This document shows, one piece after another, positions 17,979-30,702 of a stretch of 64,000 nt of DNA (position 1 is its first letter; every line of letters begins with the position of its first letter). The position numbers and the translations under genes were made by a program. This DNA is from an uncultured Oscillospiraceae bacterium (GTDB lineage: Bacteria > Bacillota > Clostridia > Oscillospirales > Acutalibacteraceae): contig USCI01000001.1 in assembly GCA_900553255.1 (NCBI GenBank), positions 12,371 through 76,370 on the forward strand. Direction: 5' to 3'. The notes beneath the pieces were generated by a model, which was given only the letters and a program-made list of their open reading frames with translations, did no database searches and was not told the DNA's origin.

Positions 17979-18010
17979 AGCGGGCAGGCAGCGGGCCTGC
18001 CCGCTTTTTG
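17979..18010 (+). terminator. rho-independent terminator
   Basis: AGCGGGCAGGC-agcg-GCCTGCCCGCT followed by TTTTT. Confidence 0.85.
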
Positions 18011-18251
18011 GACAGAAAAAATTTTTCCGTGTCCGGTTGCGGCGGGGACAGGCTTCGCAGGGAACACGATCGCCTCCGGAAACCGCCTGTGAACCTGCCG
18101 GCTGCGGGTAATCCGGATGGGCTGTTGGGCCTTCGAAATTTACACAAATTGACAGTTATAATCCTCCGTGTAAAAGTCAGAATAATGAATGCAAACGCAA
18201 TTATTATTCAGCGGCGAAAATGCCGCCAACTTTGAAGGAGTGTAGTTTATC

Positions 18252-18506
18252 ATGGCTAGCAACAAAACGATGGTTCCTGAGGCGCGCGAAGGTCTTAACC
18301 GTTTCAAGATGGAAGCTGCGAACGAAGTGGGCGTCAACCTGAAGCAGGGCTACAACGGCGACCTGACCTCCAAGCAGGCTGGCTCGATCGGCGGCCAGAT
18401 GGTTAAGAAGATTTTCCCGGAACGCCAAACGAAATTTACCCGTGAAAATCGGCGCGTGCTTAATCACCGGATGGAAATCTGCTATACCGTCGATATGGCA
18501 ATGTGA
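18252..18506 (+). CDS. alpha/beta-type small acid-soluble spore protein with atypical C-terminal extension
   Basis: 'VPEAREGLNRFKMEAANEVGVNL..YNGDLTSKQAGSIGGQMVKK' matches the SASP core. RBS GAAGGAG. Confidence 0.85.
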   Translation: MASNKTMVPEAREGLNRFKMEAANEVGVNLKQGYNGDLTSKQAGSIGGQMVKKIFPERQTKFTRENRRVLNHRMEICYTVDMAM

Positions 18507-18521
18507 ACATACAGACAGCAC

Positions 18522-18556
18522 AAAACCGGCCTTTGCAAAGGCCGGTTTTGTTTTTG
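18522..18556 (+). terminator. rho-independent terminator after the SASP gene
   Basis: AAAACCGGCCTTTGCAAAGGCCGGTTTT followed by GTTTTTG. Confidence 0.85.
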
Positions 18557-18706
18557 TCAATTTAGCTGTATTGAAGTTTTCGGTAATCCTCCCGCCATCG
18601 GAGGACAGACTTCATCTCATCGGCTATGTCGGAACACGTTGGATTGTATTGATATAAATGCCGATTTCATCATTGGTCAGATGCATATGACACTTTCGGC
18701 ATTCGC

Positions 18707-19856
18707 TCATTCCTCGTTCACAACCTTTGCACGTAGCAACAGACAGTCATGTGGAGCAATAGAGGCAGTATAGCGATAATCGCAGGTTTCGGATACGTCC
18801 CCAGTCCAGAGATTGGTCATGACCAACTTTTTACCGCAGGAACGGTTGAGGCCCAATTCCGCCATACAGAAATAAAAGTTACTGACATCGTCGGATAGAT
18901 TGAACAGGCCGATGGCGAAATCTCCATTGTTCAGGAGTCGTGCCATGATAAAGCAGTCCTCTGTACCACCGCGTACATCTGTCTGGTTTCCACCAAGCAG
19001 AAACGGCTGACAATAGGCAGGATCCTGATTAATGGCCAGCACCTCTTTGTTCATCAGTATGGTGCGTGTCTGCTCATCCATATGACGAATATCGCAGCCA
19101 ATCATGAGGGGAGAGGCAAAGAAAGCCCAGAGTGAAAAATGGGTGCGGTATTCAGCGAAGTCGCACCCCTGGAGACCGACATGTCCCTGGCCATTCATGC
19201 CCACTACCAGCATATCCATATCGTTAAAGCAGCCATGGCCGTTGTAGGGAAACAGCGCTCGCTGTTGCTTGGTCAACGATTTTATTGATTCCCAGGAGTC
19301 TACAATATCCGGAGTAGAGCGCCACATGTGGGCACCAGTGGTTTTAATCCAGCGGTGGGTTTCATCAGCCCCCCCAGGAGCAAGCGCTGAAAAGGATATC
19401 CCGGCCGCAGTTGGCCAGAGCAGTTCCCATGCGTCGGTAAAGCAGGTCTCCCGTATCCTCCGCCGGCTTGAAGCAGTAATCATATTTCAGAAAATCTACG
19501 CCCCATTCAGCAAAGTTTTGGGCGTCCAGAAATTCGTGCTCATAACTGCCCGGATATTGTCCGCAAGTCATACAGCCTGCGCAGGAATAAATACCAAATT
19601 TCAACCCCTTACTGTGCAGATAGTCCCCCACCGCTTTCATTCCATGAGGAAACTTATCCGTATTCACGACTAGCCGGTGCTGGTTATCCCGCTGCTTTCG
19701 CGCCCAAGTATCATCAATGACAACATATGTATAGCCGGCATCACGCAGTCCACTTTCCACCAACACATCTGCACATTCAAAAATGAGTTGTTCGCTGATT
19801 TTATCCGCAAATGTATTCCATGTGTTCCATCCTATAGGAGGTGTCAACTGATTCAT
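18707..19856 (-). pseudogene. GH27 alpha-galactosidase interrupted by a +1 frameshift in a G7 homopolymer
   Basis: N-terminal ORF (19365..19856): 'PPIGWNTWNTF', 'YVVIDDTW', 'LKYDYC'. C-terminal ORF (18707..19483): 'GAHMWRSTPDI', 'NDMDMLVVG'. The frames join if one base of the C7 run at 19369-19375 is removed. Confidence 0.85.
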
Positions 19857-19984
19857 ATTTTATTCCCCTCACGATTCTATTCTCTTCATCAGTATACTGA
19901 TGAACTGACACAGAATGCAACGCAGAATGTTGCCGGAACTTTGCATTTTGTTGCATCTAGAAAAAATTTATTATTGCACATTTG

Positions 19985-20845
19985 TTACATAGAGCCGGGA
20001 CACACTTCTTTCTCATTGCGGTACCGGAAACGATATTCCCGTGGAGAGCATTCATATTTGAGAGAAAACAGTCGATAAAAGGAGGAAAAAGTGCTGAAGC
20101 CCGTAGCCATTGCAATTTGTGATATGGAGAGATCACTGGTGATAAGCAGCTTTTTGGCCAGATCGACACGGTAATTGTTTAGATATTCATTTGGGGAAAT
20201 GCCGACTTCTTTTTTAAACAATCGATAAAAATAGCTGCGGTTAATCGAAATCATGTCGGCCAATCCGGATACGGTGAGATGAGAATTGTAGTTGAACTGG
20301 ATATAGCTTATCGCTTTCTGTACGTATTCTTTGGTCAAAGTGTTTTCCGTTTCCGGCGTATCAACGTGATCCATGAGGATCTCAAACATGCGCAGTAGCT
20401 GAATGGTGGCATACATGTCAATATTGCGGAAGGGCTTACTTAGGATAGTTTGAGCGGTTTCGATGATCAGGTCGCTCAACTTCATATCGTTTAGCGTAAT
20501 AACCATATTTCCATCCGCAAAACTGGTCCGCTTTAGAAGTCTTTCCACCATTTCCCCTTTGCAGGCAAAAAAGCTGTACTGCCAGGGATCTGTTTCATCA
20601 GCTGTATAAGTGGTAATCTCTTGTGGGTAGATAATAAACGCCTGGCCTTCATGTATATGGTAAATATTTCCGCGAGCGACATAGGTGCCCTTCCCGGAAG
20701 TAACCAGATGGATGAGATAAACCTCGCGTATGGCGGGACCGTAACAATAGCCACTTTCGCAAATATCCCTCCCCGCATGGCAGAAACTAAGGGATGGATC
20801 ATGAGAATTAATTGTGGCAAATAAAACCGGATTACGTAATGCCAT
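19985..20845 (-). CDS. AraC-family transcriptional regulator (cupin sensor + HTH)
   Basis: 'LIHLVTSGKGTYV' cupin-like N-terminus. C-terminal 'LTVSGLADMISINRSYFYRLFKKEVGISPNEYL..' has two HTH units. ATG at 20845; the track's longer N-terminal extension overlaps the IS remnant. Confidence 0.85.
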   Translation of the reverse strand: MALRNPVLFATINSHDPSLSFCHAGRDICESGYCYGPAIREVYLIHLVTSGKGTYVARGNIYHIHEGQAFIIYPQEITTYTADETDPWQYSFFACKGEMVERLLKRTSFADGNMVITLNDMKLSDLIIETAQTILSKPFRNIDMYATIQLLRMFEILMDHVDTPETENTLTKEYVQKAISYIQFNYNSHLTVSGLADMISINRSYFYRLFKKEVGISPNEYLNNYRVDLAKKLLITSDLSISQIAMATGFSTFSSFYRLFSLKYECSPREYRFRYRNEKEVCPGSM

Positions 20846-20847
20846 AC

Positions 20848-21290
20848 GCCAAAGAATTGACACATGACAACCACTGGATACTCTGTCCTGTGACGATAGA
20901 TGATGTGATATTTGATCCTTGGCCTCACTTCCTTTCTGTGCATTGCAGAAAATCCCGCAGCAGCTTATTCTCCATCTGTAAACGCCGGAACTCGTACGCC
21001 TGCTCTGCTTCCTTGCTGACAAACTTTGCCTCCTTTCGGCGGCGTCCTTTGGGACTGGGCAGGATTCCTGCTGCCAGTTTCGCCTGCTTGCGGTTATACC
21101 GGTTTATCCAATTCTTGATCTGCACCTTACTCAATCCAAGCCGCTCTGCTATCTCTTGCCGTGTCAATCCCATCTCCCGCATAGCCAGTATTTCTCCCTC
21201 TAACGCTTGCAGATGTGTGTATTTGTTCTTGGACATATGAACACCCCCTGTATAGGTCTATTTTCCTACACAGGGGGCGTTTTGTCCATT
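20848..21290 (-). mobile_element. IS3-family insertion sequence remnant (orfA plus the first ~25 codons of orfB)
   Basis: orfA at 20925..21236: 'LAMREMGLTRQEIAERLGLSKVQIKNWINRY..RRLQMENKLLRDF'. An orfB-like start 'IKYHIIYRHRTEYPVVVMCQFFGV' in the adjacent frame breaks off near 20850. Boundaries are approximate. Confidence 0.7.
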
Positions 21291-21333
21291 GTCCGTTTTT
21301 ACTGAACCGGTTCAAAATTGCCGCAGGGCTTTT

Positions 21334-22305
21334 TTAAAGCACCGCCAATGCCAGCCACAGCACGCCCGCTGTGGTCAGCAGCGCCGGCGCGCTGCGGAAG
21401 GGCCTCGGCAGATCGCTGTTGTCCACCCGGTACCAGACGGCGGCAAACAGGCAGCCGGCCGCAAACAGGATTGCCGCGCCGGCAAGCTGCCAGAGCAGGG
21501 CCTGCCAAATCCCGGCCGAGCGGCAGGACAGCCACGCCGTAAACGCGGCCGCCGCCATCCATACTCCATCCGCCGCCTCCGGCTTATACAGCCAGGACAG
21601 CGCGGCGACGGCCGTCACAAACGCGGCGGCGGACGGCAGCCATTCCTCCGGGAATACCGGCCAGATCATCCTCAGAAGGCTGAGCAGCACGCCCGCGGCC
21701 AGCGCGATCAGCGCAGCCAGTGCGGCCGGGAGGATCCCTTCGGCCGGACGCGGCGGCGCCACCGGCTTCCCCCGCAGGCAAAACAGCGCGAGAAGCAGGC
21801 CGGCCACCACCACACCGCTACCGCCGGCCGCAAAATCCGCCGACAGGCCCGCAGGCAGCAGACGTACCGCAAACACGGTGCCGTAGGCGAGCAGCTCCCG
21901 CACGGCGCCGATGACCACCGGCGCAAGGGCGGCGAGATAAACCCGTCCGCCCGACGGGGGCGTTTCGCTCCACTCCTCCGCCGCCGGCGCGCAGCTGAAC
22001 ACCATCGCATAAAACAGCCACAGCGGCGGCAGCCGGTCGGCCACGGCAGGCCAATATGCCAGCAGCAGCACCCGCGACAGCGTTGCGAGAAAGGCAGCGG
22101 TGAGCAGCAGCGCACCCTGCCGTATGGCGGCGGGCAGCGGCCGGAACAGCCGGGCAACCGGGATCAGGATCAGCAGCAGCCACGCGCCGAACATGGTCAC
22201 CAGCAGGCCGCCGAAGCCCGACACGCCGGCCGCCGCGCCCGTGCACAGCAGCACCGTCGATGCGGCCAGCCCGCGGTGCGCCGCCGTTTCCTTGGTATTC
22301 GTCAT
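21334..22305 (-). CDS. Rnf/Nqr-type membrane subunit, apparent RnfE-RnfA fusion (divergent)
   Basis: N-terminal half: 'AYWPAVADRL' and 'VIGAVRELLAYGTVF' resemble RnfE 'AYVPALYNSLG' and 'GSIREILGNGTIF' (from memory). C-terminus 'DLPRPFRSAPALLTTAGVLWLAL' resembles the RnfA end 'DIPKPFKGIPITLITAGLLALAF'. About 9-10 TM helices. Confidence 0.6.
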   Translation of the reverse strand: MTNTKETAAHRGLAASTVLLCTGAAAGVSGFGGLLVTMFGAWLLLILIPVARLFRPLPAAIRQGALLLTAAFLATLSRVLLLAYWPAVADRLPPLWLFYAMVFSCAPAAEEWSETPPSGGRVYLAALAPVVIGAVRELLAYGTVFAVRLLPAGLSADFAAGGSGVVVAGLLLALFCLRGKPVAPPRPAEGILPAALAALIALAAGVLLSLLRMIWPVFPEEWLPSAAAFVTAVAALSWLYKPEAADGVWMAAAAFTAWLSCRSAGIWQALLWQLAGAAILFAAGCLFAAVWYRVDNSDLPRPFRSAPALLTTAGVLWLALAVL

Positions 22306-22329: not shown

Positions 22330-23310
22330 TCAGCGGGCCGCATCGCGGACAAACCGGTACGCGAGATTGGCCGCGCGCACCACCGCTTTGGAGGATACGG
22401 TCGCGCCGGATACCGCGTCCACCGCGCCGCCGTCGCCGGGAACGGCGACCGTATTATCCTGACCGGCGGCCTCGGCGAGCGCCTGCGCCGCCAGCTCAAC
22501 GAATTCCCCGACCGAAACCGACACACCGGCATAGGCGTCGGTTTTGCCGTCCGCTTCGTTATATACCAGCTTTGCCGGGTCCTGCACGCTCAGCAGTGCG
22601 TTTTCCATGGTCTGCGCCTGCTCATGCCAGCCGGGGCCGTCCTCGGTCATCACATACCGTCCGGCGAGCGATTCCGCCTTTTTGGTGGAATCGCTGTCCC
22701 GCTTGTCGGCGTCCCAGTTGACCGCCGTGATCTTCCCGCCGGATATGGTCAGCTCCACAAAGGCGCGGTAGCCGGCGCCGTCATAATCCGGTTTCTGTGC
22801 CCGGTATTCGCCGTCGGCCCACACCGTCTGCACAGGCGGGGCGGACGTATCCCCCGGCTCATCGATGCCGGTATAGCCGCCCACCGAGGCCGGTGCGGCC
22901 AAGGCGGTAAACTGGCCGTAAAACGCTTCCTCGGTGACCCGGGAGCCGTAGCCCATCGTTTCACTGTTGCGGCCGACCCGCAGGCCGATAAACCGCGACG
23001 CATCCGGCGAAAGCGCCGTTTTGACCTCGAGATCCCCGCCGTAGCCCTTCACCTGCACCGTGACCGCATAGCCGATCACCGCACCGGATTCATCGAGTGC
23101 GCGATAGGCCGACACGATGCCCTCCGCGTCCCCGGCGTCCATCGCCTCATAGCGTTCTGCCTCGAGCAGGCCGGAAAAATTCTCACGTACCGCCTGTTCC
23201 TCCTGCCGGACGGCCAGCGTTCCGGACACCTTGTCCATCCCCCACAGCAGGCCGACCGAAGCCACGCCGACAATCAGCAGATTCCGTACGGTTTTTCCCC
23301 ATGTTTTCAT
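22330..23310 (-). CDS. rnfG: RnfG-like FMN-binding subunit with a ~130-aa inserted second FMN_bind-like domain
   Basis: N-terminal TM anchor. 'GYGGDLEVKTAL', 'NSETMGYG' and C-terminal 'VDAVSGATVSSKAV' (flavinylation-type SGAT motif). At 326 aa it is much longer than a typical RnfG of about 200 aa. Confidence 0.7.
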   Translation of the reverse strand: MKTWGKTVRNLLIVGVASVGLLWGMDKVSGTLAVRQEEQAVRENFSGLLEAERYEAMDAGDAEGIVSAYRALDESGAVIGYAVTVQVKGYGGDLEVKTALSPDASRFIGLRVGRNSETMGYGSRVTEEAFYGQFTALAAPASVGGYTGIDEPGDTSAPPVQTVWADGEYRAQKPDYDGAGYRAFVELTISGGKITAVNWDADKRDSDSTKKAESLAGRYVMTEDGPGWHEQAQTMENALLSVQDPAKLVYNEADGKTDAYAGVSVSVGEFVELAAQALAEAAGQDNTVAVPGDGGAVDAVSGATVSSKAVVRAANLAYRFVRDAAR

Positions 23311-23329: not shown

Positions 23330-24256
23330 TCAAGCGGCGTGCCGGCCGACCCGCACGCCGTACACCCGCGGCATGGTCAGCCATTCGATCAGCGGCGCTG
23401 CGGCGTTCATCAGCAAAATCGCAAAGCAGACCCCCTCGGGATACGGCCCCCAGATGCGCAGCACCGCCGTCAGGATGCCGACCCCTGCGGCAAAAAGACA
23501 TTCCCCTACCGGCGTCGTCGGCTTCGAGGTGAAATCGGTGACCATAAATACCGCGCCGAGCAGCAGGCCGCCGGACAGCAACTGCGCGGCCGCCGCCCCG
23601 GTGAAGGGCGTCGTTCCGCCGAATATCCAGTAGACCAGCGCAAAGCTCCACACACAGGTAACCGGCACCCGCATGCGGATTACCCCGCGCAGGCACAGAT
23701 ACACCATGCCGATCAGGATCAGCAGCGCGGAGGTTTCCCCCATGCTGCCGTTCTCATAGCCGAAGAACAGCGGCCACAGGGACGCATCCAGACCGGCTTC
23801 GGCAATCGGGGTGGCTGAGGATACGGCGTCCGGGCGCACATAGCCGCCCAGCGTCTGCGGCAGGGCGACCAGCAGCAGGGCACGACCGGCCATCGCCGGG
23901 TTGAACAGGTTGTGCCCGATACCGCCGGGCAGCTGCTTGACCACTGCGACGGCGAAAACGCCGGCCAGAGCCGCCGCCCAGAGCGCCGTACCCGCCGGCA
24001 GGGACAGCCCCAGCAGCAATCCGGTTACCGCCGCGCTGCCGTCAAAGCCGCCCCGGCCGCGCAGCTTCAGGCAGACCCAGTCCGCCAGGGAACACACCGC
24101 GGTGGTGGTCGCCAGAACGGCCGCCGCCTGCCAGCGGAACAGCCACACCGCCCACGCACACACCGGCAGCAGCGCGATCACCACGTCGGCCATGATAGCG
24201 GAGGTGGTGCGTTTTCTCCGGATATGCGGGGCGGCCATTTCCTGTTTTATCGCCAT
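23330..24256 (-). CDS. rnfD: Rnf electron-transport complex subunit D
   Basis: 'APHIRRKRTTSAIMADVVIALLP' typical N-terminus. 'DAVSSATPIAEAG' FMN-attachment motif. About 8-10 TM helices. Confidence 0.9.
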   Translation of the reverse strand: MAIKQEMAAPHIRRKRTTSAIMADVVIALLPVCAWAVWLFRWQAAAVLATTTAVCSLADWVCLKLRGRGGFDGSAAVTGLLLGLSLPAGTALWAAALAGVFAVAVVKQLPGGIGHNLFNPAMAGRALLLVALPQTLGGYVRPDAVSSATPIAEAGLDASLWPLFFGYENGSMGETSALLILIGMVYLCLRGVIRMRVPVTCVWSFALVYWIFGGTTPFTGAAAAQLLSGGLLLGAVFMVTDFTSKPTTPVGECLFAAGVGILTAVLRIWGPYPEGVCFAILLMNAAAPLIEWLTMPRVYGVRVGRHAA

Positions 24257-24379: not shown

Positions 24380-25666
24380 TCATCGTTTCGCCGCACGCGC
24401 CCGGGCGCGGATGCCCTCCCGCGCCATGCCCACCCGCGCGGCAAGCGGCCGCTTGGCCGGACAGGTGTACGAGCAGCAGCCGCAGGAGATGCACTGCGCC
24501 GCGTGCAGCGCTTCACAGACATCCCGCCGTCCGGCGATCACCGCCGCGTCGATCGCAAAGGGCTGCAGCCGCGACGGGCACACCCTCGCGCAGCCGCCGC
24601 AGCGGATGCAGGGCTGTTCGGTCCATCCGGGACGCCCGAGCAGTATCAGCCCGGACGTGGATTTGGTCATCGGCACATCCAGCCGGTCGAGCACCCGGCC
24701 GGTCATCGGCCCGCCGAAAACCGCGGTCAGCCCCTCGCCGCCCGCGCCGCCGCAGAAGGCCAGCAGGTCGCTGAGCAGGGTACCCACCGGCGCATAGACG
24801 TTGCCGGGATGCGCCACCTGCCCCGCCACCGTCACCAGCCGGTGGGTCAGCGGGAAGCCCGCCATCGCGTCCGAAAGCGCCGCGGCGGTGGCGACATTAT
24901 TCACGATTGCGCCGACATCGGCGGGCAGGCCGCCCTCCGGCACCTCCCGTCCTACCGCCGTCTGGATGAGCTGCCGCTCGCCGCCCTGCGGGTAGCGGTC
25001 GGGCAGCTCGAGGATTTCCACCCCGAACGGCAGCGCCGCCTCCCGCAGCTTTTTCACCGCGTCCGGCTTATTGCTTTCCACGCAGATTTTTACCGCCGCG
25101 CCCGCCGCCTGGCCGAGCGCCGCCGCGCCCGCCACCACCCGGTCGGCATGCCGCACCATCAGCTGATGGTCACAGGTGAGATACGGCTCGCATTCGCAGC
25201 CGTTGACCAACACCCAGTGGATCGCCTTATCGGTTTCGTACTTCACCGCGGTCGGAAACCCCGCACCGCCCATGCCGATCAGCCCTGCCTCCCGCATAAG
25301 GGTACGCAGGCCCTGCGCACCGGGCAGGTGCTTGATCCCCGGCGCCGGCGTGTCGCAGCCGTCGTTTTCCACCACCACACACAGGCCTTCTCCTTCGAGG
25401 CAGGGACGGTTTTCCACCGCGGTGACCGTGCCGGACACGCTGGCATGCACCGGCACCGACATTTTCCCGTCCGCCCGGCCGATCAGCTCACCCTTTCTCA
25501 CCGTCTGCCCCGGTTCCACCACCGGCAGCGCCGGCTTAGCCAGCCCCTGCGCCAGCGGGATGACCACCTGCGGCGGGGCAAGGGTCTGCACCGGCAGGTT
25601 TGCCGTCTCCTCTTTATGCTCGGTCTGATGCGGGAGAGCGATGCCCCCGCTGAATTTTGCGCCCAT
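24380..25666 (-). CDS. rnfC: Rnf electron-transport complex subunit C (NADH/FMN and 2x[4Fe-4S])
   Basis: 'GMGGAGFPTAVKY', 'CECEPYLTCD', 'CIRCGGCARVCP' and 'CISCGCCSYTCPA'. Confidence 0.9.
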   Translation of the reverse strand: MGAKFSGGIALPHQTEHKEETANLPVQTLAPPQVVIPLAQGLAKPALPVVEPGQTVRKGELIGRADGKMSVPVHASVSGTVTAVENRPCLEGEGLCVVVENDGCDTPAPGIKHLPGAQGLRTLMREAGLIGMGGAGFPTAVKYETDKAIHWVLVNGCECEPYLTCDHQLMVRHADRVVAGAAALGQAAGAAVKICVESNKPDAVKKLREAALPFGVEILELPDRYPQGGERQLIQTAVGREVPEGGLPADVGAIVNNVATAAALSDAMAGFPLTHRLVTVAGQVAHPGNVYAPVGTLLSDLLAFCGGAGGEGLTAVFGGPMTGRVLDRLDVPMTKSTSGLILLGRPGWTEQPCIRCGGCARVCPSRLQPFAIDAAVIAGRRDVCEALHAAQCISCGCCSYTCPAKRPLAARVGMAREGIRARARAAKR

Positions 25667-25687: not shown

Positions 25688-26734
25688 TCACTCATCCAGA
25701 CAATGCCCGGCAAAGCCCAGGGTCATCTCCCGGCTGCCGTCCGCAAATATCCACAGTGCATCGACAGCCGGCAAGCTCTCCACCGCTGCCCGGCCGGTGG
25801 CATACGGCTGTGCGAACAGTGCGGTGGACAGGTAGTCCGCCGTAAACGCATCCGGCGCCAGCACACACACCGCACGGCAGTAGCGCGCCGGATACAGGGT
25901 GGATTCTTCCAGGATATGCGCATAGTATGTCCCGTTTGCGGCAAAATACTTCTGGTAATCCCCGCTGACCCCCAGGCACCGGTCGGTGAGAGCCAGCGTC
26001 ACGCTGTATTCCGGCACCTCCCGGCGTCCGGACAGGTTGAGCACGGCGTCCGGCTCCCGCAGGGCGACCGTCCAGCCGCTGCTCTCCGGCGGCGCGCCGG
26101 CGCACACCATGGTGCTCTCCCCGAAATCCAGCAAAAAATCGGTCAGCCTCAGTTCGCGCAGCCGCGCTGCGGCGGCATCCGCCGCGTGGCCCTTGCCCAC
26201 CGCGCCGAGATCGAGCGACAGCTCCGGGTCGGCGATGGTGATTTTTTCGCTTTCCGGATCCGCAATAACCTGATCCAGCGCCATGTGCTCCCCCGCATGC
26301 TGCAAAGCGGCAGCATCCGGCAGCACGCCGGACGCCCGGGCCTGCTCCCACAATCGCAGCACCGCCCCCATCGCGATGTTCGTCCCCGGCACCCGGGCAT
26401 ACAGCGCCTGGCAGCGGCCGACCAGCGCACACAGCTCCGCCGGGCAGGCAGCCGTGCCGCCCGCCGCCGCATTCACCCGGGACACCGCACTGTCCGGCCG
26501 GTGGACGTCGAGCAGCGCTTCCTGCCGCTCCAGCTCCCCGCGCACCGCCTCCACCGCCCGGATGAACTCCGCTTCGTCGGCACAATACACGATCATCCGC
26601 GATACGGTATCCATTGCCCCGATAAACTCGGTGGAAAACCGCCGCGGCGCGGGATCGGCCGCCTGCGCCATACAGCCGGTCAGACCCACACAAAGGATGG
26701 TCAATATCCCCAAAAACATCCGGCGCATCTTCAT
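25688..26734 (-). CDS. apbE: ApbE-family FAD:protein FMN transferase lipoprotein
   Basis: Lipobox 'LTGC'. 'MDTVSRMIVY', 'SAVSRVN' and 'LDLGAVGKGHAAD' ApbE-like motifs. First gene of the rnf-like operon. Confidence 0.85.
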   Translation of the reverse strand: MKMRRMFLGILTILCVGLTGCMAQAADPAPRRFSTEFIGAMDTVSRMIVYCADEAEFIRAVEAVRGELERQEALLDVHRPDSAVSRVNAAAGGTAACPAELCALVGRCQALYARVPGTNIAMGAVLRLWEQARASGVLPDAAALQHAGEHMALDQVIADPESEKITIADPELSLDLGAVGKGHAADAAAARLRELRLTDFLLDFGESTMVCAGAPPESSGWTVALREPDAVLNLSGRREVPEYSVTLALTDRCLGVSGDYQKYFAANGTYYAHILEESTLYPARYCRAVCVLAPDAFTADYLSTALFAQPYATGRAAVESLPAVDALWIFADGSREMTLGFAGHCLDE

Positions 26735-26865
26735 CCCCCTAACAAATCGCAGGCTTGACCCGATATTGTCCTTTTATTGTGCCCCGAAGTATGGTATAGT
26801 TTGTACAAAGTGGATGAATTTTTTCTCCGACCGTTGAATAACGGATGCGAAAGGATGAGGCTTCG

Positions 26866-27345
26866 ATGAAAAGAACCCATTGGTTTTCCGGAGCGGCAGG
26901 GATCGCCTGTGCGCTGATGATGGCGGCCATGCTGTCAGGATGCTCGAAGGAACCGGCGGGCAGCGATGCGGGTTCCGCTCCCGCAAGTGACACCGCCGCT
27001 TCCACCACCGCGGAGACAACGCCGGCTACCACGACGACCACTCTGCCGGGCGAGCCGGCGGCCTATCCGGTGCGCGGCTGGTGCTCGGACGATGACGTCC
27101 TTGTGCGCAGCGGGCCGGGCAAGGAATACGGCGCCATCGGCGGTGCGCACAAGGGCGAGCAGTTCAGCGTGCTCGGGCGCGAAGGCGACTGGTACAAGGT
27201 GCAGCATGGCGAGGACGAGGGCTATATCAGCGCCCAATTCATCCGGTTCAGCCTCGAAGAGGCGATGGCGACGACTACCACCGAAGCGCCGACCACCACG
27301 GCGGATACCGGCGAGAATTCCGCGCAGGAGGGACAGGATTCCTGA
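26866..27345 (+). CDS. SH3b-domain lipoprotein with Thr/Ala-rich linkers
   Basis: Lipobox 'MLSGCS'. 'VLVRSGPGKEYGAIGGAHKGEQFSVLGREGDWYKVQHGEDEGYISAQFI' is a bacterial SH3 motif. ATG 26866 follows GAGG. Confidence 0.75.
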   Translation: MKRTHWFSGAAGIACALMMAAMLSGCSKEPAGSDAGSAPASDTAASTTAETTPATTTTTLPGEPAAYPVRGWCSDDDVLVRSGPGKEYGAIGGAHKGEQFSVLGREGDWYKVQHGEDEGYISAQFIRFSLEEAMATTTTEAPTTTADTGENSAQEGQDS

Positions 27346-28138: not shown

Positions 28139-28190
28139 GACAGCAAAAGGCTGCCGCACCAGCGGCAGCCTTTTGCTGTCTGTTGCTTTT
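28139..28190 (+). terminator. strong hairpin with a U-rich tail only on the + strand, abutting the stop of the minus-strand permease gene
   Basis: GACAGCAAAAGGCTGCCGC / GCGGCAGCCTTTTGCTGTC (19 bp) followed by TGTTGCTTTTT. Confidence 0.6.
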
Positions 28191-29005
28191 TACGCGTTCC
28201 GGTTGCGAATAAAGAAGGTGCCGAAAAACAGCGCCGCCGCAACCAACACGATCATCGGGCCGGTGCCCACTGCGTGATAATACGAGAGCAGCAGGCCGAG
28301 CAGGCCGGAAAACAGGCCGAAAATCAATGCGAGGACGTGGTAGCTGCGCATGCTGCGGGACACGTTGCGCGCCGCAGCCGCCGGCAGGATCAGCATCGCG
28401 TTGATGATCAGCAGCCCCACCCAACGGATCGCCAGCATCACAATCACCGCGATAATCACCACAAACAGGTTATCGAGAAAGGCCACCGGGATCCCCTTGC
28501 TGCGGGCAAGCGACGGGCTGAGGCTGACCGCATGCAGGCTGTTGAAGCACAGCAGCCACAACAGCACGACCACCACCAGCGCGCCGGCGAGCACCGCCAG
28601 CTCCCCGCGGGAAATGCTCAGGATATCCCCGATGAGCAGGCTCTGGTATTTGGAAAAGCTGCTGCCCCTCGAGAGGATCACCAGCCCCAGCGCCACGCCG
28701 CAGGAGGAAAACACGCCGATAACCGTATCGGTCGAGGAAAGGCGGGAATGGCGGATGCGATTCATCAGCAGGGCAAACACCACCGCAAAGGCGATCATCA
28801 CAAGATTCGTATCGGTGAAGCCCAGCAGGACGCCAATGCCCACGCCGGTCAGTGCGGAGTGCCCGAGCGCATCCGAAAAGAACGCCATGCCGTTATTGAC
28901 CACCAGCGTGCCGAGCAGGGCAAACAGCGGCATAATCAGCAGCACGGCGACAAAGGCGTTACGCATAAAGTCATACTGCCACCAGCCAAACAGGGCGTCA
29001 AGCAT
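28190..29005 (-). CDS. metal (zinc-type) ABC transporter permease, ZnuB/AdcB-like
   Basis: ABC-3 type membrane protein with 8-9 TM helices. ATG 29005 overlaps the upstream stop (ATGCTTGA). Confidence 0.85.
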   Translation of the reverse strand: MLDALFGWWQYDFMRNAFVAVLLIMPLFALLGTLVVNNGMAFFSDALGHSALTGVGIGVLLGFTDTNLVMIAFAVVFALLMNRIRHSRLSSTDTVIGVFSSCGVALGLVILSRGSSFSKYQSLLIGDILSISRGELAVLAGALVVVVLLWLLCFNSLHAVSLSPSLARSKGIPVAFLDNLFVVIIAVIVMLAIRWVGLLIINAMLILPAAAARNVSRSMRSYHVLALIFGLFSGLLGLLLSYYHAVGTGPMIVLVAAALFFGTFFIRNRNA

Positions 29006-29747
29006 GCGCAATCCCCTCCCCTTCCGGAAATGCCGCGCGGAACGCCTCATCGGCAAACACCGTCTCCGGGTCGCCGGATGCCGCTACCCGGTGGTCGAGC
29101 AGCACCACCCGGTCCGCATGCCGCCGGACATAATCGAGGTCATGCGACACCAGCAGGATCACCATATCGTCGGTGGCCTTGAGCCGGTCCACCGTTTCAT
29201 AAAACTGCGCCAGCCCCGCCTGGTCGACGCCGGAGACCGGCTCGTCCAGGATCAGCAGATCCGGCTTGGGCAGCGTGGCAACGGCAAGCAGCACCCGCTG
29301 CAGCTCGCCGCCGGACAGCCGGCCCACCGGCTTATCCAGCAGCATGTCCGCCGAAAAGCGCGCCAGGTGCGCCCGCAGCGCCTCGGTCTGCTTTTTCCGC
29401 CGCGGCAGGAAGGCCGGATAGGCCGAGGAGTACGACAGCAGCATATCGTACACCGTCGCGGGCGAGCCGCTGTCGATGTTCAGCGACTGCGGCACATACC
29501 CGATGCGGGGCTTATGCACCCGCTCGCCTGCCGTATGCCCGCTGAATTCCACCGTTCCGGTGTGGCGGATCTCCCCCAGAATCGCCTTGAGCAGGGTGGA
29601 TTTCCCCGCACCGTTGCGCCCGATGATGGCGGTCAGCTCGCCGCAGTGCGCGTGCAGGTTCACATCGGTCAGGATCACCGTTTCCCCTGCCCGCACGCCG
29701 ATATGGTTGATTTTCAGGCAGTGCAGCCCGCAGCCGGTCGCAGTCAT
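28998..29747 (-). CDS. metal ABC transporter ATP-binding protein, ZnuC/AdcC-like
   Basis: Walker A 'GRNGAGKST', signature 'LSGGELQRV', Walker B 'LLILDEP'. ATGA overlap with the upstream gene. Confidence 0.9.
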   Translation of the reverse strand: MTATGCGLHCLKINHIGVRAGETVILTDVNLHAHCGELTAIIGRNGAGKSTLLKAILGEIRHTGTVEFSGHTAGERVHKPRIGYVPQSLNIDSGSPATVYDMLLSYSSAYPAFLPRRKKQTEALRAHLARFSADMLLDKPVGRLSGGELQRVLLAVATLPKPDLLILDEPVSGVDQAGLAQFYETVDRLKATDDMVILLVSHDLDYVRRHADRVVLLDHRVAASGDPETVFADEAFRAAFPEGEGIAHA

Positions 29748-30676
29748 GCCGTCTCCCCCCTCAGCTTGCGCAGGTTTTCCCGCATGGCGTTCAGCCAGGC
29801 GTCCGGGGACTCATCCCCGACGACCCCCATGTCCAGCTGCAGGATCCTGCCGTCCGCCGCACTGTCCGCAAGGTATTCGTACGCCGGGTCGTACTGGTTG
29901 TCGTACAGCAGCCACACCTGTCCGGCTGCAGCTGCGGCCTGCTGCGCCGCCGCCAGATCCGCGGCGGACACCCCCGCATCCTCCCCGATCGGCAGGGAGG
30001 CGAGCGGCGTCAGGCCGAGATCGTCGGCAAAATACCGCAGCGATTCATGGAACAGGATGCAGCCGTCAAACGGCAGCGATGCGGCGGTATCGGCAAACGC
30101 CGCCCGGATCTCCCCGATTTCCGCGAGGTATTGCGCGGCGTTGTCCCGATACTGCGCGGCATGCGCGGGATCCGCCTCACACAGCCCGTCGCGCAGGTTT
30201 TCCACCTGCCGGTAATACCGGCTGGGGCTCGTCCAGATATGCTCATTGACCAGCTCCTCGTGGATTTCGCCGTCCTCGTGCTCATGCGCATGTCCGCTCT
30301 CCAGCAGCGAAATCCCCGCCGAGGTATCCACCACCGGCAGCTCCGGGAACCGGCTGCGCGCATCGTCCAGGAACGCCTCGGCTCCCGCTCCGTTGATCAC
30401 CAGCACATCCGCTTCCGCAAGCGTAATCATGTTGTCCGGCGACAGCTGGAAATCGTGCAGGCAGCCGGTCTGCGGTCCGGTCAGGCTGATGAGCTCCACA
30501 TCGCCGATCCCCTGCGTCAGGTTCAGCGCCGCCACATACACCGGATAAAACGACGCGACGATCCGCGTTTTTTCCTTCCCGCGCTGCGCCGTACCGGTCA
30601 GCAGCGTAATCACCGCCGACAGCGCCACAATGCCCGCCATCAGCAGCGCCACCTGTGCGTAAACCCGTTTTCCCAT
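29744..30676 (-). CDS. metal-binding lipoprotein/SBP, ZnuA/AdcA-like with His-rich loop
   Basis: 'IVASFYPVYVAALNL' and 'CLHDFQLSP'. His/acid-rich loop 'SGHAHEHEDGEIHEE' typical of zinc-specific cluster A-I SBPs. Confidence 0.85.
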   Translation of the reverse strand: MGKRVYAQVALLMAGIVALSAVITLLTGTAQRGKEKTRIVASFYPVYVAALNLTQGIGDVELISLTGPQTGCLHDFQLSPDNMITLAEADVLVINGAGAEAFLDDARSRFPELPVVDTSAGISLLESGHAHEHEDGEIHEELVNEHIWTSPSRYYRQVENLRDGLCEADPAHAAQYRDNAAQYLAEIGEIRAAFADTAASLPFDGCILFHESLRYFADDLGLTPLASLPIGEDAGVSAADLAAAQQAAAAAGQVWLLYDNQYDPAYEYLADSAADGRILQLDMGVVGDESPDAWLNAMRENLRKLRGETA

Positions 30677-30702
30677 GCCGCCCTCCAAAAATGCTTCCGC
30701 TC

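Follow-up and report, generated by a model that had tools for sequence, protein, structure and literature searches.

Can a single polypeptide stand in for RnfE and RnfA, the two membrane subunits that form a heterodimer in the Rnf complex, and if so, which features of the pair does it keep? The question is raised by a gene, here called X, located at positions 21334-22305 on the minus strand of a 64,000-nucleotide stretch (the window) of contig USCI01000001.1 from an uncultured Oscillospiraceae bacterium. X closes its operon, and its product of 323 residues is a membrane protein in which an RnfE-like and an RnfA-like part are fused and for which 11 transmembrane helices are predicted. Its 323 codons begin with an ATG, which lies 24 nt past the stop codon of the preceding gene and is preceded, 8 nt upstream, by the Shine-Dalgarno sequence GGGAGGA (22320-22314). 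A first-pass annotation, made from the DNA letters alone, had described X as a compacted RnfE-RnfA fusion with inverted halves and had implied a four-cysteine iron centre. The fusion with its inverted halves is upheld here by homology, structural model, predicted topology and operon context; the four-cysteine centre is not. The only iron-sulfur cluster known to lie buried halfway across a membrane is that of RnfA/RnfE (NqrE/NqrD). This Fe or [2Fe-2S] centre is ligated by four invariant cysteines, located in helices I and IV of each of RnfA and RnfE (PMC9588780; bioRxiv 10.1101/2024.06.21.599731), and the pair has been proposed to be the Na+ pump of Rnf (bioRxiv 10.1101/2024.06.21.599731).

Searched as a single sequence, X finds nothing significant in Pfam, NCBIfam or the PDB sequences (phmmer). 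The NCBIfam RsxA model matches its last 53 residues (aa 268-320) weakly, at E 0.0019 and 18 bits against a cut-off of 240, and a profile built from the four closest sequences alone returns only spurious NOTUM matches from the PDB, at E around 1. An exhaustive HMMER scan of 1.84 billion representative proteins for homologues of X yielded only 24 proteins, nearly all 302-346 residues long and matched over their full length, and no canonical RnfA or RnfE was among them. The family comprises about 17 full-length clusters, at most 50% identical to one another and all unannotated. Its named members are labelled 'hypothetical protein' and come from metagenome-assembled genomes (MAGs) of Clostridiales; a close homologue, with 85% identity, was found in one uncultured Ruminococcaceae MAG when GTDB genomes were scanned with the single protein. 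One candidate, P0005 (333 aa), was left out of the family alignment because stretches identical to the family alternate in it with unrelated ones, the typical pattern of a frameshift assembly error. X itself is not such an assembly or frameshift artefact, as intact orthologues occur in many samples. The resulting alignment of 20 sequences served as input for the hidden Markov model (HMM) searches and for structure prediction.

With this family HMM, nine matches at E of 10 or less were obtained among all PDB sequences, and eight of them are Rnf/Nqr membrane subunits, the ninth being a marginal match to 6bhp_A (E 0.13). The matches are subunit-specific. The N-terminal half of X (about residues 13-175) matches only RnfE or NqrD, namely RnfE of 7zc6_E (E 3.5e-9), NqrD of 7xk3_D (E 2.1e-7), and RnfE of 8ahx_E (E 3e-7) and 9eri_E (E 1e-6). 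The C-terminal half (about residues 185-324) matches only RnfA or NqrE, namely RnfA of 7zc6_A (E 8.5e-8, with residues 189-324 of X aligned to residues 39-184 of RnfA), 9eri_A (E 3.7e-6) and 8ahx_A (E 4.5e-4), and NqrE of 7xk3_E (E 0.11). The same assignment was obtained with hhalign against RnfE-type and RnfA-type profiles, which included E. coli RsxE and RsxA: the N half aligns to the RnfE profile with a probability of 91.6% and E 8e-7, as compared with E 0.26 for RnfA, and the C half aligns to columns 37-190 of the RnfA profile with a probability of 96.9% and E 1.9e-10, as compared with E 2.5e-4 for RnfE. Controls with reversed template profiles fail (E 0.06-0.6). Since the matches are specific for each half and the reversed controls fail, the resemblance of X to Rnf subunits goes beyond chance. 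The annotation had named such a profile-profile comparison as the check, with the fusion to be abandoned if one Rnf-Nqr domain or none were found, or if the topology did not fit two inverted halves; both halves match, N to RnfE and C to RnfA, and neither of these outcomes was seen. Compared directly with each other, the two halves match weakly (hhalign E 0.0016, probability 16%) and give no match in BLASTP, which is why the internal repeat is invisible without the RnfA and RnfE profiles.

These alignments define an RnfE/NqrD-like unit of six helices (aa 1-185, positions 21751-22305) and an RnfA/NqrE-like unit (aa 186-323 plus stop codon, positions 21334-21750) that comprises only helices II-VI. 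The measured division into about 185 and 138 residues is close to the split into about 190 and 130 that had been made by eye. All alignments of the C half start at RnfA residue 35-39, directly past RnfA helix I. It is chiefly by the loss of RnfA helix I that X has become compact, a point the annotation had missed. Residues 153-178 (helix 6) were considered as a stand-in for this helix, as the full-length hhalign alignment reached RnfA column 21, and were rejected since the segment is aligned with zero confidence.

All strings quoted in the annotation were found in X: LLC at 19-21, AYWPAVADRL at 83-92, VFSC at 102-105, AVRELLAYGTVF at 134-145, LFCLRG at 174-179, LSCRS at 259-263 and DLPRPFRSAPALLTTAGVLWLAL at 298-320. 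The sequence G133-x-x-R136-E137 (GAVRE, positions 21895-21909), at the end of helix 5, is invariant in all 20 aligned sequences and corresponds to the G..RE.LG.G.LF motif of RnfE/NqrD; this region of X aligns with 'iGiiREfLGtGkvFG' of RnfE/NqrD. Besides G133, R136 and E137, the positions invariant in the family are G161, G164 and P300. At the other end of the protein, residues 293-320 (positions 21346-21429) carry the RnfA-type C-terminal motif R293-x-D-N-x-x-L-P-x-P-F-R-x-x-P together with the last helix. Over these 28 residues, which lie within the RsxA match, X is 54% identical to an RnfA-type protein that matches PF02508 and is encoded at locus L001 in an operon without rnfG and rnfB.

With regard to the fold, an AlphaFold2 model computed from the 20-sequence alignment has a mean predicted local distance difference test score (pLDDT) of 87.5, a predicted template modelling score of 0.84 and 11 helices, six within residues 13-174 and five within residues 187-322, with a short hairpin after the RE motif. 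A model from the shallow four-sequence alignment had a pLDDT of 40 and was not used. Counted against the six helices per subunit of RnfE and RnfA, of which helices I and IV are broken, the N half has six and the C half five. Between them, residues 175-186 form a non-helical linker at which the pLDDT dips. The linker segment as a whole (aa 175-187, CLRGKPVAPPRPA, positions 21745-21783) is rich in Arg, Lys and Pro, is predicted to be cytoplasmic from the model and its basic residues, and connects the RnfE-like helix 6 to the equivalent of RnfA helix II. In a Foldseek comparison with the PDB, in which every E-value was weak, the only matches that combine a low root-mean-square deviation (rmsd) with a high probability are RnfE chains: 9eri_E, with probability 1.00, TM-score 0.58 and 4.1 Å over 169 columns, and 7zc6_E, with probability 0.97 and TM-score 0.57.

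Averaged over 17 full-length members, the loops on the side of the N-terminus contain 11.1 Lys and Arg residues vs 3.2 on the other side, and the linker has the highest mean of all loops in the family (3.3). X is therefore predicted to have its N-terminus inside and its C-terminus outside. Given the six plus five helices and this positive-inside bias, the second unit is predicted to be inverted relative to the first, so that the two inverted halves of the annotation are compatible with the topology. RnfE reportedly has both termini inside and RnfA both termini outside, in an oppositely oriented pair (Saaf et al., 1999). Once RnfA helix I is lost, a cytoplasmic loop could connect RnfE helix VI with RnfA helix II, and the halves would stay antiparallel.

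The cysteines of X tell a different story from the one implied by the annotation, which had placed four of them at plausible equivalent positions. X has five, at positions 21, 105, 176, 261 and 285. Cys21 (codon at 22243-22245) aligns with the cluster cysteine in the LCP motif of RnfE helix I and is a cysteine in 16 of the 18 members that have this column. Cys105 (codon at 21991-21993) coincides with the cluster cysteine in the NC motif of RnfE helix IV in the 8ahx_E alignment and lies 3-4 residues away, about one helical turn, in those with 7zc6_E and 7xk3_D; it is a cysteine in 13 of 19 members. On the RnfA side, the helix I ligand position is deleted and helix IV is shortened, and the column of the helix IV ligand is occupied by Ala253 in X and by Ala, Ser, Gly or Val in 19 of 20 members. 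Cys176, Cys261 and Cys285 are confined to the closest relatives, and neither Cys176 nor Cys261 falls at an RnfA ligand position in the alignments. Of the four ligand positions, just two hold a cysteine in X, both on the RnfE side and both variable, and the RnfA-side ligands are gone; the four invariant cysteines that characterize the RnfA/RnfE family are not found in X. The equivalents of a further pair of residues are also unconserved in the X family: R62 and E110/E111 correspond to the R67/E115 ion pair of RnfE, which has been implicated in Na+ uptake.

The operon places X beside apparently intact partners. It runs on the minus strand and begins with a gene for an ApbE flavin transferase (25688-26734; PF02424, 7.6e-51), followed by rnfC (24380-25666). 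The latter encodes a 428-residue protein with an NADH (reduced nicotinamide adenine dinucleotide)/FMN (flavin mononucleotide) module, with a Nuo51-type FMN domain, and two CxxCxxCxxxC motifs (at aa 353 and 392); its RnfC_N, Complex1_51K and SLBB domains score above the Pfam cut-offs, and its Fer4-type matches below theirs. The next gene, rnfD (23330-24256), encodes 308 residues (PF03116, 3.8e-97; TIGR01946, 3e-74) with a flavinylation-type motif, DAVSSAT, at aa 143-149. Directly before X lies the gene of a 326-residue RnfG-like extracytoplasmic flavoprotein (22330-23310; FMN_bind, 9.8e-13, and rnfG models). Its RnfG fold contains an insert (aa about 150-285) that E. coli RsxG lacks and that forms an additional FMN_bind/PplA-like domain. 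Besides the canonical DAVSGAT (aa 298-304), this protein has DAYAGVS at aa 258-264, in the insert and before the DAVSGAT helix. The insert motif TDAYAGVS is non-canonical and present in most members, the canonical DAYSGAT takes its place in L009, and in L007 a protein of 460 residues carries the insert in duplicate.

The block apbE-rnfC-rnfD-rnfG-X recurs in the close relatives L001, L003 and L006, at 85% nucleotide identity, and around the distant family members P0010 (L007) and P0016 (L008), as well as, without apbE, around P0025 (L009). X occupies the same, last position at every locus examined. No RnfB-type or Fer4-rich gene was found in the operon or its flanks in the window, L001, L003, L007, L008 or L009, and no separate PF02508 gene (rnfA or rnfE) occurs in the X operon at the loci examined. 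Gene for gene, the order follows that of clostridial rnfCDGEAB, except that E and A are merged and rnfB is missing. Synteny with relatives breaks off at 21313, about 20 nt past the stop codon of X, so X is a true last gene that has not been truncated by the DNA downstream. Truncation of the operon by the downstream region, which resembles an insertion sequence (IS), was considered and ruled out, as the conserved block stops at the same place in relatives whose downstream genes differ.

X has been retained under selection. In comparisons of the window with two relatives, the ratio of nonsynonymous to synonymous substitution rates (dN/dS) is 0.13-0.17 for X, 0.14-0.16 for ApbE and 0.04-0.10 for RnfC, RnfD and RnfG, and family-wide identity is 25-37% for X and 42-64% for RnfC, RnfD and RnfG. 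Judging from these values, the rate of evolution of X is about double that of its partner subunits, and X is functional, yet the least constrained subunit. Among the membrane subunits of canonical Rnf/Nqr, conservation is highest in RnfA and RnfE (table in PMC12174285).

Taken together, these observations make it likely that X is an RnfE-RnfA fusion that has lost the cluster and serves mainly as a scaffold in an RnfB-less conduit from NADH to the outside. Direct support comes from the half-by-half homology, the helix count, the conservation of the operon, the absence of rnfB from the operon at six loci, the cysteine pattern and the faster evolution. What follows is inferred where it concerns topology in vivo, cluster loss, X as a scaffold, and which way and to what acceptor electrons flow. 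An RnfE-type domain of six helices with a cytoplasmic N-terminus would be joined to a five-helix RnfA-type domain whose C-terminus lies outside; as the end of RnfE and the start of RnfA helix II would both be cytoplasmic, a short basic loop could join the halves after deletion of helix I. X would replace RnfA and RnfE in a four-subunit Rnf derivative without RnfB, a proposal based on the order apbE-rnfC-rnfD-rnfG-X, in which rnfCDGEAB can be recognized after a merger of E with A and the loss of B. Given that two of four cysteines are missing, the other two are variable and no RnfB is co-encoded, X has most likely lost the membrane [2Fe-2S] centre and, from the Rnf cycle, the ion-coupled half on the side of ferredoxin. 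The branch given up would be that from ferredoxin via RnfB and the [2Fe-2S] centre to RnfG, along with Na+ pumping. X would have been retained as a structural partner of RnfD and an anchor of the RnfG-like protein. Electrons would follow a one-way path from cytoplasmic NADH through the FMN and 4Fe-4S centres of RnfC and the flavins of RnfD to the extended RnfG-like flavoprotein outside. The extra FMN_bind/PplA-like domain of the latter supports the reading of an outward conduit. A broader formulation is put forward tentatively, as something short of an even bet: in a lineage of gut Clostridia (Ruminococcaceae/Oscillospirales MAGs), an Rnf pump may have been turned into an undescribed RnfB-less four-subunit conduit in which RnfA/E persists as a fused, truncated, cofactor-free scaffold. 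Neither an RnfA-RnfE fusion nor an RnfB-less rnfCDG operon was found described in the literature searched, whose incomplete coverage gives no proof of absence.

Several observations count against this reading of X. No Pfam or NCBIfam model reaches its threshold for X, and PF02508 (Rnf-Nqr) does not match it, the best E-value being 0.54, in two of the 20 family members. The Foldseek E-values of the RnfE chains are poor (0.36-0.79), and RnfA chains are absent from the top 50 matches. An RnfB or another partner may be encoded beyond the 64 kb window, and both the acceptor and the direction of the outward flow are inferred. Finally, judging from the retention of Cys21 (16/18) and Cys105 (13/19), some metal site may persist in X. 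The most serious competing explanation is that X still binds Fe or Fe-S through Cys21 and Cys105 together with non-cysteine or partner ligands and that the complex acts as a full ion-coupled oxidoreductase with a cytoplasmic donor other than a co-encoded RnfB. The alignment of both cysteines with RnfE ligands, the strong conservation of the RE and RnfA C-terminal motifs and the apparently intact RnfC, RnfD and RnfG would all fit a working redox centre. However, X lacks the ligand-bearing helix I of RnfA, the ligand of RnfA helix IV is replaced by Ala, Ser, Gly or Val in nearly all members, several members lack Cys21 or Cys105, none of the six operon copies has rnfB, and X is the fastest-evolving subunit where RnfA/E are the best conserved in canonical Rnf/Nqr (PMC12174285). 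We therefore regard a metal-binding X as unlikely, roughly a one-in-several prospect.

That X is merely a decaying, non-functional remnant of rnfE and rnfA carried along with the operon is far less probable still. Its being the least conserved gene of the operon and its loss of a helix and of ligand residues could be read as decay, but open reading frames of 302-346 residues have stayed intact in about 17 clusters with at most 50% mutual identity, dN/dS remains at 0.13-0.17 with some motifs invariant, and a confident AlphaFold2 fold, a constant operon position and a good ribosome-binding site all point to a gene in use. The remaining explanation, a chance likeness between an unrelated polytopic membrane protein and Rnf subunits, both hydrophobic and rich in Ala and Leu, draws on the failure of the single-sequence Pfam, NCBIfam and PDB searches and on the fact that the top Foldseek E-values belong to transporters of the major facilitator superfamily type, whose rmsd is around 20 Å. 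It is effectively refuted: the best eight PDB matches are all Rnf/Nqr and correctly split between the halves, seven of them at E 3.5e-9 to 4.5e-4, the reversed-profile controls fail, and RnfC, RnfD, RnfG and, except in L009, ApbE accompany X at every locus examined.

Around the operon, a divergently oriented gene upstream of apbE (26845-27345, plus strand) encodes a lipoprotein with a lipobox-like SGCS, a Thr-rich linker and an SH3_3 domain. An SH3_3 gene is found in this place in L001, L003, L007 and L008 as well, though the operons are only about 55% identical, and the lipoprotein may be a cell-wall-associated partner of the Rnf-like system. A ZnuA/ABC-3/ABC_tran metal-uptake operon (28190-30688, minus strand) adjoins the Rnf-like operon, as it does in L003 and L008, not in L007; in L003 a Fur-family gene also lies beside it. 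Such a neighbourhood could be conserved synteny and no more, or could hint at a connection with metal acquisition. On the downstream side, the DNA of about 18000-21313 has a lower guanine-cytosine content, 48-54% as compared with about 62-66%. It contains, on the minus strand, an IS-type helix-turn-helix open reading frame (20925-21236), an AraC-family regulator (19985-21022) and an apparently truncated alpha-galactosidase (18707-19483); the segment was probably inserted or rearranged in this genome alone. Across the window (1-64000), there are no tRNA or tmRNA genes, no Rfam match at the gathering score and no tandem repeat scoring 80 or more.

A second type of cluster was seen in related genomes, in which rnfC-rnfD-rnfE-rnfA is followed by a DUF4015 gene and rnfG and rnfB are missing (L001 12683-16015; L010, L011 7116-10594). 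In RnfA of this cluster, both ligand positions lack a cysteine (TTGFGSS, AAFNNVV), and in RnfE the helix I cysteine alone is left. RnfA/E may therefore have lost cluster ligands more widely within the clade.

The X family remains under purifying selection in operons whose RnfC, RnfD and RnfG are intact, and it indicates which parts of the RnfA/E module can be lost. As a single, simplified chain, X lends itself to structural and mutational study. The operon points to an unrecognised link from NADH to extracytoplasmic flavoproteins in gut anaerobes. This system escapes genome surveys in which Rnf is defined by RnfB or PF02508, because the proteins are labelled 'hypothetical' and missed by Pfam and NCBIfam. 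If the proposed reading is true, X is a natural experiment that separates the structural role of RnfA/E from its role in redox chemistry and Na+ pumping, and an example of an antiparallel heterodimer fused via deletion of a helix.

Among known systems, X descends from, and works like, RnfE plus RnfA. By the family HMM, hhalign and negative controls, it is homologous to both RnfE/NqrD and RnfA/NqrE. It resembles the RnfE/RnfA heterodimer (PF02508; 7ZC6, 8AHX, 9ERI) in its homologous and antiparallel halves, in the order E then A of clostridial rnfCDGEAB, in the GxxRE..G.G.LF motif of RnfE and the RxD(N)..P.PFR..P motif of RnfA, and in being co-encoded with RnfC, RnfD, RnfG and ApbE. The Rnf character of the operon is seen in these subunits and their ApbE-type motifs (DAVSSAT, DAVSGAT); its operon and flanks lack the RnfB polyferredoxin subunit. 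In contrast to the heterodimer, X is one chain of 11 helices instead of two chains of six, lacks RnfA helix I, has a shortened RnfA helix IV and only two of four ligand cysteines, both variable, has no RnfB partner in the operon, remains below the Pfam and NCBIfam thresholds and evolves faster than its partners. The likeness to NqrD and NqrE of Na+-NQR (7XK3) consists in the inverted-pair architecture and in the matches of the N half to NqrD (E 2.1e-7) and, weakly, of the C half to NqrE (E 0.11). X differs from these subunits, as from RnfE/RnfA, in being fused and in its altered cysteine pattern, and its operon has no NqrA or NqrF but an RnfC with NADH/FMN and FeS modules.

At the level of the whole system, the X operon can be compared with the 'NQR/RNF-like' systems of Meheust et al. 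2021 (eLife, PMC8238504), in which an RnfD/NqrB domain is fused to an NqrF-type NAD-binding domain (PF00175). These occur mainly in Actinobacteria and the Candidate Phyla Radiation, with no RnfA/E-like subunit described (PMC8238504). Like the X operon, they are ApbE-associated and Rnf-derived and have apparently kept one of two transmembrane electron paths, so that electrons would move in one direction only, along a path linking the NAD(P)H site in the cytoplasm with an FMN domain on the extracytosolic side. The X operon differs in its stand-alone RnfD, in RnfC as the NADH site and in the fused RnfE-A remnant; its RnfD, at 308 residues, matches PF03116 only, and the PF00175 fusion is absent from it. 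As RNF is defined in that scheme by the presence of RnfB (PMC8238504), the X operon would have gone unclassified by it. The RnfG-like protein of the X operon resembles the multi-flavinylated RnfG proteins that were proposed in the same study as exits to extracytosolic acceptors (PMC8238504).

The merging of a homologous, oppositely oriented pair into one chain with an internal inverted repeat also likens X to dual-topology and inverted-repeat families. Such fusions usually gain a linker helix, whereas X apparently reached its odd number of helices by losing one.

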